A stretch of 64,000 nucleotides of DNA from a virus. Made by a program: the position numbers and the translations under genes. The stretch spans positions 1-64,000 of IMG/VR virus record IMGVR_UViG_3300023179_000038; one strand, given 5' to 3'. Shown here piece by piece: positions 2 through 12,789 of this stretch. Positions within the stretch are counted from its first letter, which is position 1. Each line of letters starts with the position of its first letter. Under the pieces are notes generated by a model. The model was not told the origin of the DNA and searched no databases. It saw nothing but the letters and a program-made list of their open reading frames with translations.

Positions 2-274
2 AAGCCAGATAAAGATACTAAGGGTGCTGTAAAGAAATGGGAAAACAAGGTAGATATTATCAATGACATCTACACTGGTGAATATAACGGAATGATTTCT
101 GGTAATGCGTGGGGTGCGTTCAATGCGCTAACTGAGCGTTTAGACTGGTATCGTTCTGCTCGTGGTGGCAATAATGAAAGTATTCTTGCTTCTGCTTCTG
201 GATTTGACCCTGCTATCAATGCAGAAAAAAATCGCTTACTAAAAGTTGTTCAAAATACTTTGCAACTAATCTAG
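2..274 (+). CDS. DUF932-family phage protein, C-terminal part (5' truncated by window)
   Basis: Frame is open from base 2. The GNAWGAFNALTERLDW motif resembles the DUF932 C-terminus. Confidence 0.7.
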   Translation, partial: KPDKDTKGAVKKWENKVDIINDIYTGEYNGMISGNAWGAFNALTERLDWYRSARGGNNESILASASGFDPAINAEKNRLLKVVQNTLQLI

Positions 275-280
275 TAAATA

Positions 281-308
281 AAATCCTGAGCATGATTTAA
301 AACTGCTC
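281..308 (+). ncRNA. Compact H-type pseudoknot motif, copy 1
   Basis: AAATC-CT-GAGCA-T-GATTT-AAAAC-TGCTC gives stem1 AAATC/GATTT and stem2 GAGCA/TGCTC. A second copy lies at 12165-12195. Confidence 0.55.
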
Positions 309-312
309 CGCT

Positions 313-386
313 GGTCCCATAGATCAATTGGTTAGATCGTTACCCTGTCACGGTAAAGGCTACGGGTTCAAGTCCCGTTGGGATCG
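313..386 (+). tRNA. tRNA-Asp(GTC)
   Basis: Acceptor GGTCCCA/TGGGATC, anticodon arm TTACC-CTGTCAC-GGTAA, T-loop TTCAAGT. No encoded CCA. Confidence 0.95.
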
Positions 387-439
387 CAAGCGGATCGGGG
401 TTACAAAAATGTTATCATTTTGTTTTATTAAGAGGGGAT

Positions 440-468
440 TTGCATTTTCCCCATTCTTGATGTAAAAT
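440..468 (+). promoter_or_regulatory. Sigma70/SigA-type promoter, leaderless
   Basis: TTGCAT-17bp-TAAAAT, with ATG 7 nt downstream at 476. Confidence 0.6.
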
Positions 469-475
469 TAATATT

Positions 476-637
476 ATGACCACAACCTACAAACCTTACA
501 CCATAGACGAACTAGTAACTACAATATACGAAGATAACTTCTCACATCTAGATTTTATGGATAACATGGGTGGAGAAGATTGCGATTGCCGTATCCATAT
601 GACTCTTAATACTATTTTAGAATATTGGGGTGAATAA
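476..637 (+). CDS. Hypothetical 53-aa protein (MTTTYKPYTIDEL...)
   Basis: Read manually. It follows the promoter, and its stop overlaps the next start (TAATG). Confidence 0.65.
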   Translation: MTTTYKPYTIDELVTTIYEDNFSHLDFMDNMGGEDCDCRIHMTLNTILEYWGE

Positions 638-11107: not shown

Positions 11108-12142
11108 TTAATAACTTAACCTATATCTATTTGTATTTTTAACTGTTTTACCAAAATCGGCAAACAATGCTTTATCTTTTTCTGCATTCACAATACGACG
11201 TGACCATGCAAAGCCAGCATCCCCACCCCATGCTAACCACATAATGTACCCATTGGAAGGATTTGACTGATTACCCCAATCTTTCCCCTTTTTATCTACC
11301 TCATGACGAGAAAAATAAGAATACATTCTTTTAACAGTGCTAAGAGATAAAGTTTCTCCTCTTGCTAATTGTCCTGCACGAGTCCAACCTACTGCAGTTC
11401 CTGCACCTTTTGCTTTACCCTGTTCTTTAAATCTAATTGCTTTACGTGCTGCTGCACGAGCACCTGCTGGTGGAGAGTATCCTTCTGCTTTTGATACAAA
11501 ATCTGTTTCATAAACAACAGTATCATCATCTTCCCATAGATCATCTGCTTTTGCTGCAGGAACACAGTTTGGAACCATTTTTCCATTCTTTCCTGGCTTC
11601 ATTCCACGCTGAACATAACCATCCCAACATGGCGCTTTCTTTTCTATCTCATCTGGACAGCATCCGTCTATCTTTTCATATATCATTTCGCCAGCCATTG
11701 TTATTTCCATATCTTGTAATTTTGGTTCTTGTGGTAGTGGATCAATTGGGATCATTAATGACATCATGCATGCAGAGTATTCTCTTGTTGCCTTCCAGTA
11801 TCCATCTTCTTCTTGTTCAAATAATTGAATAAGTACCGCTGGATTTTCAGCAGTTGCTTCTAGGGTATATTCTCCTCCAGGAACTCCAAGCATTCCCTCT
11901 CTCATTACATGAACAACTTGTCCAATATGAAATTCATCTCCACCATGAGAAGTGAGAGCAAAGTCGCCTTCTTTAAGATCTGTCATTGCCTTTCCTATAT
12001 TTCCTTCAGAAAGATTTATAGCGTATATCTGCGCTGTTGCAGCAGCACGAGTCTTATGACATCCCATAACCTCGCCTGTGTTTTTTAAAGCAGGATATCC
12101 AGAGCACCCATATGAACCTTTAGCACCTACATGATACGGCAT
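11108..12142 (-). CDS. Modular conserved phage protein, possibly head-associated
   Basis: Modules MPY...GCH.T...A..Q..A, CWDGY...VPNCVP and GT.VGW.RA.QLA...RM.SYFSRH...W..WGG recur in phage proteins. Confidence 0.75.
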   Translation of the reverse strand: MPYHVGAKGSYGCSGYPALKNTGEVMGCHKTRAAATAQIYAINLSEGNIGKAMTDLKEGDFALTSHGGDEFHIGQVVHVMREGMLGVPGGEYTLEATAENPAVLIQLFEQEEDGYWKATREYSACMMSLMIPIDPLPQEPKLQDMEITMAGEMIYEKIDGCCPDEIEKKAPCWDGYVQRGMKPGKNGKMVPNCVPAAKADDLWEDDDTVVYETDFVSKAEGYSPPAGARAAARKAIRFKEQGKAKGAGTAVGWTRAGQLARGETLSLSTVKRMYSYFSRHEVDKKGKDWGNQSNPSNGYIMWLAWGGDAGFAWSRRIVNAEKDKALFADFGKTVKNTNRYRLSY

Positions 12143-12164
12143 ACTATCATTATAGCATAAAAAA

Positions 12165-12262
12165 GAGCAGTTTTTACAGTCATGCTCAGGACTATTCCAG
12201 TTATTTAGTGGTCGCTGTCTCCCCCGACCTATCTGCGACTTCTCAGTGACGAGATGCAGATA
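12165..12262 (-). ncRNA. Structured RNA after hsp20: two hairpins plus pseudoknot copy 2
   Basis: TATCTGC/GCAGATA and GGTCG/CGACC stems, then ATAGTC-CT-GAGCA-T-GACTGT-AAAAAC-TGCTC followed by a T-run. Confidence 0.55.
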
Positions 12263-12271
12263 TATATTATA

Positions 12272-12688
12272 TTATTTTATTTTAATTGTTTTTGGTCTTT
12301 TTTCTTCAGGAACAATACGATCAATACTAATATTAAGCATTCCATCCTTTAGATCAGCACCAGTTACTTCCATGTATTCACCAAGAGCAAATGATCGTAT
12401 AAATTTACGACCAGCAATGCCTTTATGAACAATTTCAGCATCAGTTACTTCAACAATTTCTCCCTTAATAATAAGTGTTCCATTATCTACTGAAACATCA
12501 ATATTATCTTTTGTAAAACCCGCTACCGCAATTGATAGTTTATATGTATCTTCATCTAGTTTAAGAAGATCATAAGGAGGGTATGACTGTGAATTTATTT
12601 TATGTGCTGTATTTAAACGGCTTAACTCTCTGTTAAAGCCAATAAAAAAAGGATCATTAAATAGATCCATTGCAAACTGTGTTACCAT
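12272..12688 (-). CDS. hsp20: Small heat-shock protein Hsp20 (IbpA-like)
   Basis: SYPPYD, AVAGF, HKGIA.RKF.RSF.L and DGML motifs. Start moved to MVTQF after the GGGG RBS. Confidence 0.95.
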   Translation of the reverse strand: MVTQFAMDLFNDPFFIGFNRELSRLNTAHKINSQSYPPYDLLKLDEDTYKLSIAVAGFTKDNIDVSVDNGTLIIKGEIVEVTDAEIVHKGIAGRKFIRSFALGEYMEVTGADLKDGMLNISIDRIVPEEKRPKTIKIK

Positions 12689-12690
12689 TT

Positions 12691-12713
12691 TTATTCCCCT
12701 TTCAAGCGAATAA
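12691..12713 (-). promoter_or_regulatory. ROSE-like RNA thermometer hairpin occluding the hsp20 RBS
   Basis: TTATTCGCTT-GAA-AGGGGAATAA. The UCGCU motif pairs with the SD, with one G-G mismatch. Confidence 0.6.
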
Positions 12714-12746
12714 GTTAATTTGCCCCTCATTTGAGCAGGCATAAAT

Positions 12747-12775
12747 ATTATAGCATAGAAAAACAGGCCTGTCAA
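12747..12775 (-). promoter_or_regulatory. Consensus promoter for hsp20
   Basis: TTGACA-17bp-TATAAT with extended TG. Confidence 0.85.
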
Positions 12776-12789
12776 ATAACAAGCCTGTT
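12759..12789 (-). terminator. Intrinsic terminator after the holin-like gene, overlapping the hsp20 -35 box
   Basis: AACAGGC...GCCTGTT stem followed by a T-run. Confidence 0.6.

Follow-up and report, generated by a model that had tools for sequence, protein, structure and literature searches.

A small H-type RNA pseudoknot at gene ends in phages of many bacterial phyla, a candidate 3'-end mark of phage messages

Intrinsic-terminator hairpins and REP or other intercistronic stem-loops block 3' exonucleases in bacteria. At the 3' end of the MALAT1 and MEN-beta transcripts a triple-helical cap is followed by a tRNA-like RNA, which is removed by RNase P. Compact H-type pseudoknots of the luteovirus type, such as that of BWYV, are stimulators of -1 frameshifting. 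H-type knots can also be substrates of RNase P: when a synthetic knot is given a GCCAC trailer, the RNase P RNAs of bacteria and archaea cleave it between loop-1 base 9 and G10 (PMC12710915). In that substrate base 9 is position -1 and G10 position +1, and an added 3' RCCA is needed (PMC12710915). The RNA element described here shares features with each of these systems. It was found in the first 64 kb (64,000 nucleotides, the window in what follows) of a 110,677-bp IMG/VR virus record (IMGVR_UViG_3300023179_000038). A first-pass annotation, made from the sequence of the window, had pointed out a small pseudoknot present twice, with base changes in stem 1 that keep the pairing, and had proposed a functional RNA. 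The roles suggested were a 3' exonuclease block or processing signal, a ligand-binding aptamer and a decoy for type III toxin-antitoxin systems.

Both copies have exactly the sequences, coordinates and strands that had been claimed for them (table 1). The count of two is right for the window, and a third copy of the same record lay outside it. The chance expectation of the full composite pattern within the window is 0.00. Each window copy is indeed intergenic and in the sense of its upstream gene, which encodes a DUF932 protein in one case and Hsp20 in the other, and the described spacing of 4 nt between copy 1 and tRNA-Asp is correct.

Table 1. Coordinates of the pseudoknot copies, their neighbours and related features in other phages.
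Feature	Position	Strand	Sequence, parts or source
Pseudoknot copy 1	281-308	+	AAATC-CT-GAGCA-T-GATTT-AAAAC-TGCTC; sequence; 47.5 bits with model R1
Copy 1, parts	stem 1 281-285/294-298; loop 1 286-287; stem 2 288-292/304-308; junction base 293		loop 1 is CU
Copy 1, A-rich loop 3	299-303	+	
Pseudoknot copy 2	12195-12165	-	ATAGTC-CT-GAGCA-T-GACTGT-AAAAAC-TGCTC; sequence; 44.2 bits with R1
Copy 2, stems	stem 1 12195-12190/12181-12176; stem 2 12187-12183/12169-12165		
Copy 2, loops	loop 1 12189-12188; junction base 12182; loop 3 12175-12170		
Pseudoknot copy 3	110098-110131	+	beyond the window, same record (= L123 1501-1534); covariance-model search
DUF932 gene, 3' end	2..274	+	ORF list; Pfam DUF932, phrog_1221
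tRNA-Asp(GUC)	313..387	+	ARAGORN; Rfam tRNA 68.5 bits; no encoded CCA
Terminator-like hairpin 3' of tRNA-Asp	434..451	+	consensus scan and sequence
Hsp20 gene upstream of copy 2	12272..12775	-	Pfam HSP20, E = 1.3e-16
U6 run directly 3' of copy 2	12159..12164	-	sequence
Extended -10 TGcTATAAT (12157-12149) and ATG (12142-12140)	12140..12157	-	sequence
16-bp hairpin of Mycobacterium phage Patience	JN412589 57302-57359		GGATAGGGGTCAGAGA ... TCTCTGGCCCCTATCC; between gene 86 and tRNA-Gln (L420)
Triple-knot array, L099	5440-5634		non-coding stretch before DUF932
Triple-knot array, L051	7401-7575		after gene end

Copy 1 follows the end of the DUF932 gene, whose last 90 codons lie inside the window. 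From the stop codon TAG (272-274), directly after which a TAA stands, the order is 6 nt, the knot, 4 nt and tRNA-Asp. The gene, the knot and the tRNA must be co-transcribed, and the hairpin 3' of the tRNA is, to judge from its sequence, the likely true end of this unit; it is followed by a promoter-like site (439-468) and then by a near-leaderless ATG at 476. The record itself begins within the DUF932 gene. Since the opposite end of the record (110677) does not hold the remainder of its about 340 codons either, about 0.8 kb has seemingly been lost from the assembly.

The hsp20 gene upstream of copy 2 is preceded by a full-consensus TTGACA-17-TATAAT promoter with TG at 12775-12747 (-), identified by promoter scan. 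The TTG start in the ORF list, which overlaps this promoter, is probably placed too far upstream. The promoter also overlaps a 12-bp terminator-like hairpin (12747-12789, -) just 5' of hsp20. Two more hairpins are predicted at 12210-12262 (-), between the hsp20 stop and copy 2, and part of this block (GCGAC..AAATAACTGGWATAGTC) is conserved in relatives that bear a copy-2-type knot. Copy 2 and its U6 run together have the shape of an intrinsic terminator. Beyond them the extended -10 stands 6 nt before the ATG of an apparently leaderless 344-aa gene. The layout TGnTATAAT, 6-7 nt, ATG recurs in most of 80 relatives fetched through the 344-aa protein; the gene is thus typically leaderless, and copy 2 lies outside its mRNA. 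Only eight of the 80 have a knot in the copy-2 slot, and in all eight a U-rich run follows it. At 463-478 (+) a gene likewise appears near-leaderless, with an extended -10 (TGnTATAAT or TAAAAT) 6-7 nt before the ATG. At copy 3 the stop of a 55-aa gene is followed by a 5-bp hairpin (TTCCT/AGGAA), the knot and, directly, a TTGAAA-17-TAGGAT promoter. The bases just 3' of copies 1, 2 and 3 are CGCU, UUUU and AACU.

The motif scan proposed in the first-pass annotation was run on the viral metagenome sequences of IMG/VR. With the pattern CTGAGCA-N5-12-AAAACTGCTC, in which the stem-1 bases are left free, at least 119 contigs matched. The family has the consensus NNNNC-CU-GAGCA-W-GNNNN-(N)AAAC-UGCUC, roughly 28 nt. 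Although unconstrained in the pattern, stem 1 is formed with at least four consecutive pairs in 128 of the 151 instances among the matches listed. In the same matches the loop-adjacent pair is invariably C-G, and the next three pairs occur as three to six pair types each, with 42-63 double changes each. The compensatory change first noted in stem 1 is a single swap of A-U for G-C, which is weak alone; it is the covariation of these three pairs across relatives that confirms the pairing. Stem 2 was approached with a model, R1, which describes stem 1 only and is blind to stem 2; it was used to search the fetched loci and to align the copies. Among its new, lower-scoring matches GAGCA/UGCUC is replaced by AAGCA/UGCUU, GGGCA/UGCCC, GAACA/UGUUC or GAGUA/UACUC, and many R1 matches read GAGUA/UGCUC, keeping a G-U pair. 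In the R1 alignment four stem-2 pairs show double changes, none with an unpaired cell, and 22 cells carry G-U changes; 96% of all cells are paired, as against 26-38% with slid partners. The two interlocked helices thus both covary, and the H-type pseudoknot is real. It has 4-5 bp in stem 1, 1-2 nt in loop 1, 5-6 bp in stem 2 and one junction base, and the A-rich loop 3 crosses stem 1. The 3' arm of stem 1 and loop 3 together measure exactly 10 nt in 118 of 150 distinct copies among the matches listed. In 70% of the copies listed stem 2 is followed by an A, which is able to pair with U9 (65 UA and 8 UG combinations against 26 other).

A minority class has AAAA-G in place of AAAC-U at the junction. 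The resulting AAAA-GGCUC breaks the A14-U31 pair, for example at L099 5603-5634, L090 4859-4890 and L020 3672-3703. Such a variant class recalls the specificity switches of riboswitches, and preQ1-I has the same topology, with 5 bp in stem 1, a short loop 1 and a tail rich in A. A small-molecule aptamer, a riboswitch-like sensor akin to preQ1-I, is nevertheless highly improbable: the two tail forms swap at orthologous sites, the one-base junction offers no evident pocket, and preQ1 and all other Rfam aptamer families fail to match. The aptamer role first suggested also sits badly with several copies per genome, placed after unrelated genes or before tRNAs and mostly lacking an expression platform.

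The element acts as RNA of the gene strand. Among the matches listed, 185 of 191 copies lie on the same strand as the surrounding ORFs, and just one of the 191 falls within an ORF of its own strand. Read on the opposite strand, the G-U pairs turn into A-C mismatches, so that the fold exists only on the gene strand. A DNA-level site, which a motif without strand bias would have suggested, is ruled out by the bias and by these strand-specific pairs. A sigma-70 or phage promoter was likewise rejected: both stems covary with G-U pairs, and the phage promoters are separate sigma-70-like sites at variable distance. The covariation of two stems, the strand bias, the G-U pairs and the lack of a matching Rfam family together give strong support to the functional, structured RNA that had been proposed.

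The Rfam comparison returned no matching family in Rfam 15. At the gathering threshold the whole window yields only four tRNAs, and positions 240-330 searched at E up to 10 give two chance matches of 10-12 bits on the opposite strand. In 14 multi-copy loci Rfam finds tRNAs and one tmRNA-like match only, and no ribozyme family. The tmRNA match, 73 nt at L051 11486-11558, is just at the gathering score, in a G+C-richer knot-bearing contig, and is probably a tRNA-like domain. No description of the family was found in a literature search; it may stand unnamed in a 2023 catalogue of 10,006 phage RNA candidates. The knot family is new to Rfam 15 and to the literature searched.

The knots stand at the ends of genes. 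Counted from the stop codon, the invariant C of stem 1 lies at least 8 nt away in all copies among the matches listed and 8-12 nt away in 39% of them; within this range, spacings of 8, 9, 10, 11 and 12 nt are about equally common, with no frame preference. A recoding signal for frameshifting or readthrough is excluded by this lack of frame preference, by in-frame stops on the 3' side and by a UGA inside the knot in one frame. The median distance to the next ORF start is 122 nt in the matches listed, and the neighbourhood of the knot is depleted of promoter-like sites, which are enriched 100-160 nt farther downstream. A sense-strand element right after stops and before the next transcription start has the position of a 3' stabiliser or terminator. 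The 40 nt upstream of the knot are more structured than controls. The genes upstream are diverse (DUF932, Hsp20, ArdA and others), and those downstream belong to many families. A partner protein encoded beside the element was rejected on account of this diversity on both sides. Some copies lie 10-20 nt ahead of an RBS, and in some relatives three knots form ORF-free arrays with spacers of 62-86 nt and other small hairpins between. A 5' or trans-acting role is compatible with these arrangements too.

Such placement invites the idea that the knot binds or sequesters a conserved protein or the ribosome, for example as an insulator that stops ribosomes on termination or during scanning, or as a decoy aimed at a nuclease or defence protein of the host. 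With its sharp 8-nt lower bound the knot abuts the leading edge of the terminating ribosome, its unpaired bases are very highly conserved, and there are the ORF-free three-copy arrays and the many copies in early regions beside DUF932, ArdA and Hsp20 genes. We consider this unlikely, however, since no protein family travels with the element through its diverse neighbours and many carrier phyla, none of the ten neighbouring proteins here matches a PADLOC model, and plain hairpins can substitute for the knot. The more specific suggestion of a decoy or mimic of a type III antitoxin RNA draws on the similar size of such pseudoknots and on the three copies in a row of a few relatives. It is scarcely credible: copies in this genome are single and dispersed, with no tandem identical repeats, and the arrays elsewhere have unequal spacers and no identical repeats either. 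Of the ten neighbouring proteins searched with PADLOC none is ToxN-like or belongs to another defence system, and Rfam yields no match to a type III antitoxin family. This part of the first-pass proposal is unsupported.

A tRNA is a frequent downstream neighbour. Among the matches listed, 33 copies, copy 1 included, stand 4-14 nt ahead of a tRNA, which is tRNA-Asp in 27 of them, and none stands directly after a tRNA. The arrangement seen at copy 1 recurs in 27 other loci. So short a distance has no room for a promoter, and the polymerase must read through these knots. In the fetched loci 65 of 82 phage tRNA genes, the tRNA-Asp of the window among them, have no encoded CCA; these phages therefore depend on the CCA-adding enzyme of the host.

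The demand for read-through bears on the possibility that the knot works mainly on transcription, as a pause site or an intrinsic terminator of pseudoknot type in which stem 2, forming in the RNA exit channel, replaces the hairpin. A U-run is found within 14 nt 3' of the knot in 23% of the copies among the matches listed, compared with 6.8% of control windows. This is a 3.4-fold enrichment, and T frequency peaks at +4 to +9. Copy 2 has its U6 and then a promoter, in a transcription unit (hsp20) without another terminator-like site, and a classical terminator shape occupies the slot of the knot in 11 of 80 relatives. A primary role in termination is doubtful all the same. Of the copies listed, 77% have no U-run, and those before tRNAs have to be transcribed through. 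Where a U-run is present it usually starts 3-4 nt past the stem and not at once; a stem with an immediate U-run, as intrinsic termination requires, is found at copy 2 and is lacking at copies 1 and 3 and in most of the family.

What else can fill the slot of the knot is seen in 80 loci fetched through the DUF932 protein, irrespective of the knot. In 69 of these a knot comes right after the DUF932 stop. The remaining 11, those with the terminator shape, have a G+C-rich hairpin and a U-run there instead, directly before the tRNA. Two closely related cultured phages repeat the exchange. Mycobacterium phage Labelle has a 49-bit knot, at ON108649.1 56438-56469, 4-5 nt after gene 85. In Mycobacterium phage Patience the orthologous gene ends with the same codons and is followed by a 16-bp hairpin, and no knot occurs anywhere in the genome. 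A plain stable stem-loop can therefore do the job in this slot. The replacement argues against catalysis, and thus against a very small self-cleaving ribozyme that would cut phage transcripts at gene boundaries. Multiple intergenic sense copies, covarying stems and invariant unpaired bases are distributed much as in hammerhead, twister and pistol ribozymes; about 28 nt with some nine unpaired bases is, however, smaller than any known natural self-cleaver, and neither the element nor the 14 multi-copy loci match an Rfam ribozyme family. Self-cleavage is very unlikely. Exchange with hairpins can be taken as the strongest argument, drawn from comparison of sequences, for a structural job, the defining or protecting of a 3' end. 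That the knot has this fold, strand, gene-end position and interchangeability with hairpins is established.

The favoured reading, which stands about an even chance of being right, is that the knot is a 3'-end cap or punctuation mark for phage mRNAs, doubling as a terminator stem where a U-run follows. Among the three roles named in the first-pass annotation, the exonuclease block or processing signal is the best anatomical fit, by adjacency to stop codons and by interchange with hairpins; the nuclease resistance it needs, and any effect on mRNA half-life, we infer only. The proposed mechanism is as follows. (i) In the transcript of a gene or transcription unit the knot would be the structured element that comes last. 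(ii) A 3' end would be made downstream of it. At copy 1, RNase P would cut at the adjacent tRNA and, if it acts here as it is established to do, give the DUF932 message a new 3' end 4 nt past the knot. At copy 2 the end would come from termination at the U-run, and at copy 3 from downstream termination or cleavage. (iii) Exonucleases acting 3' to 5' would trim back to the knot and halt, so that the upstream message is stabilized. (iv) In copies with a U-run behind them, stem 2 probably serves as terminator stem as well. RNA polymerase would pass a knot that lacks a U-run, as it would not pass a G+C-rich hairpin that has one, and would go on to make downstream tRNAs and cistrons. Some observations count against a cap. 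Phages of many phyla keep loop 1, stem 2 and the AAAC tail far more constant than a generic roadblock seems to require, which suggests either a specific partner or an exacting tertiary fold. In Clostridium sp. LS and Lacticaseibacillus songhuajiangensis, both prophage-like contexts, the knot lies just 3' of a terminator-shaped hairpin, and would be reached only by read-through.

Conservation of this kind would be expected if the knot were not a passive roadblock, but a specific signal read by near-universal prokaryotic machinery. We hold this tentatively, as a lesser possibility; RNase P or the enzymes of tRNA 3' ends would be the most plausible readers, and a polymerase terminator or self-cleavage is less plausible. 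In one form of this idea the stacked stems mimic the acceptor/T minihelix of a tRNA. RNase P would cut in loop 1 (U9/G10), or CCA-adding and trimming enzymes would act on the 3' side, and the knot would be a processing site splitting long transcripts. The architecture is nearly that of the synthetic RNase P substrate (PMC12710915), and RNase P is present in every host group seen, which would explain conservation across phyla. As in preferred RNase P substrates, position -1 is U and stem 2 opens with a G:C pair, both near-invariantly, and +1 is A in 70%; C is enriched at +2 and +3. ACC follows 14% of copies against a background of 1.3%, and ACCA 17 of 190, among the matches listed. We nevertheless think a tRNA-acceptor-like handle rather improbable. 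RCC is absent from most copies, including all three here (CGCU, UUUU and AACU), and the A at +1 is equally explained by a U9-A pair that lengthens stem 2. Featureless plain hairpins fill the same slot in relatives, and a cut in loop 1 would wreck the knot and leave the upstream mRNA unprotected.

Carriers are widespread. The cultured ones are Labelle, on Mycobacterium smegmatis, cyanophage S-RIM4 of Synechococcus and Paracoccus phage ParKuw1 (Autographiviridae), and the IMG/VR carrier contigs among the matches listed are assigned to many bacterial phyla. GTDB genome contigs gave 122 pattern matches, most of them chance, of which 29 have a proper stem 1. The 29 are from Saccharibacteria, Lachnospiraceae, Eggerthellaceae, Clostridium sp. 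LS, Lacticaseibacillus, Calothrix, Anaerolineae, Polynucleobacter, Omnitrophica, Atribacterota and one Methanobrevibacter bin; five such genomes have one or two copies each, amid small ORFs typical of mobile elements. The DnaE polymerase of the window phage is closest to those of Streptomyces phages. Streptomyces phage BillNye, its nearest cultured relative by DnaE, has no knot copy, and megablast of the flanks of both copies against cultured phages gave no match. A BLAST match in Javan221 was discarded, as it lies inside a CDS.

The lifetime of each phage operon message is set by RNA structures at gene ends, so far regarded as plain hairpins of local sequence. Here one 28-nt knot with near-invariant loops is common to phages of actinobacteria, cyanobacteria, proteobacteria, firmicutes and candidate-phyla bacteria, and one genome often has several copies. 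As a nuclease-proof cap it would be a compact, portable mRNA stabilizer, useful in synthetic operons. If it is read by a universal enzyme, RNA processing signals would gain a new class, a portable 28-nt 'cut here / end here' mark common to phages of many phyla. The knot can be tested directly in cultured carriers, for instance Labelle on M. smegmatis.

The type III antitoxin RNAs ToxI, CptI and TenpI are likewise small pseudoknotted RNAs with phage connections. The tandem identical repeats, the neighbouring toxin gene and the processing by the toxin that mark these antitoxins are not seen here. The aptamer of the preQ1-I riboswitch (RF00522) is a pseudoknot that is likewise small and of the H type, and its A-rich 3' tail also ends in C-U. 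The present family does not match RF00522, does not lie upstream of queuosine genes, has a one-base junction and occurs in several gene-end copies per genome. BWYV-type frameshift stimulators are of nearly equal size and share the 5-bp stem 1, the loop 1 of 1-2 nt, the A-rich loop in the stem-1 minor groove and a similar spacing from the A-site codon. The knot differs in having no slippery site, frame preference or downstream open frame, and in the UGA that it contains in one frame. The biotin-aptamer and TYMV tRNA-like pseudoknot substrates of RNase P (PMC12710915) are H-type as well, with stem 2 at the 3' side followed by a discriminator-like purine. In contrast to the synthetic substrate, ACC follows about 14% of natural knots and none in this genome, and cleavage of the knot family is putative.

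The arrangement at copy 1 and the 32 others placed before a tRNA, with a message, a compact A-rich tertiary structure and then a tRNA whose removal by RNase P would leave the structure terminal, resembles the 3' ends of MALAT1 and MEN-beta. There the structure is a U-A-U triple helix with a genomic A-tract; here it is a 28-nt H-type pseudoknot, the downstream element is a genuine tRNA, the setting is bacterial or phage and protection is putative. With the 3' stabilizers of bacteria the knot shares its place at gene ends and between cistrons, the sense strand, the occasional arrays and a slot in which it is interchangeable with hairpins. REPs and terminators are plain hairpins of species-specific sequence, whereas the knot keeps near-invariant loops and a near-invariant stem 2 across many phyla.
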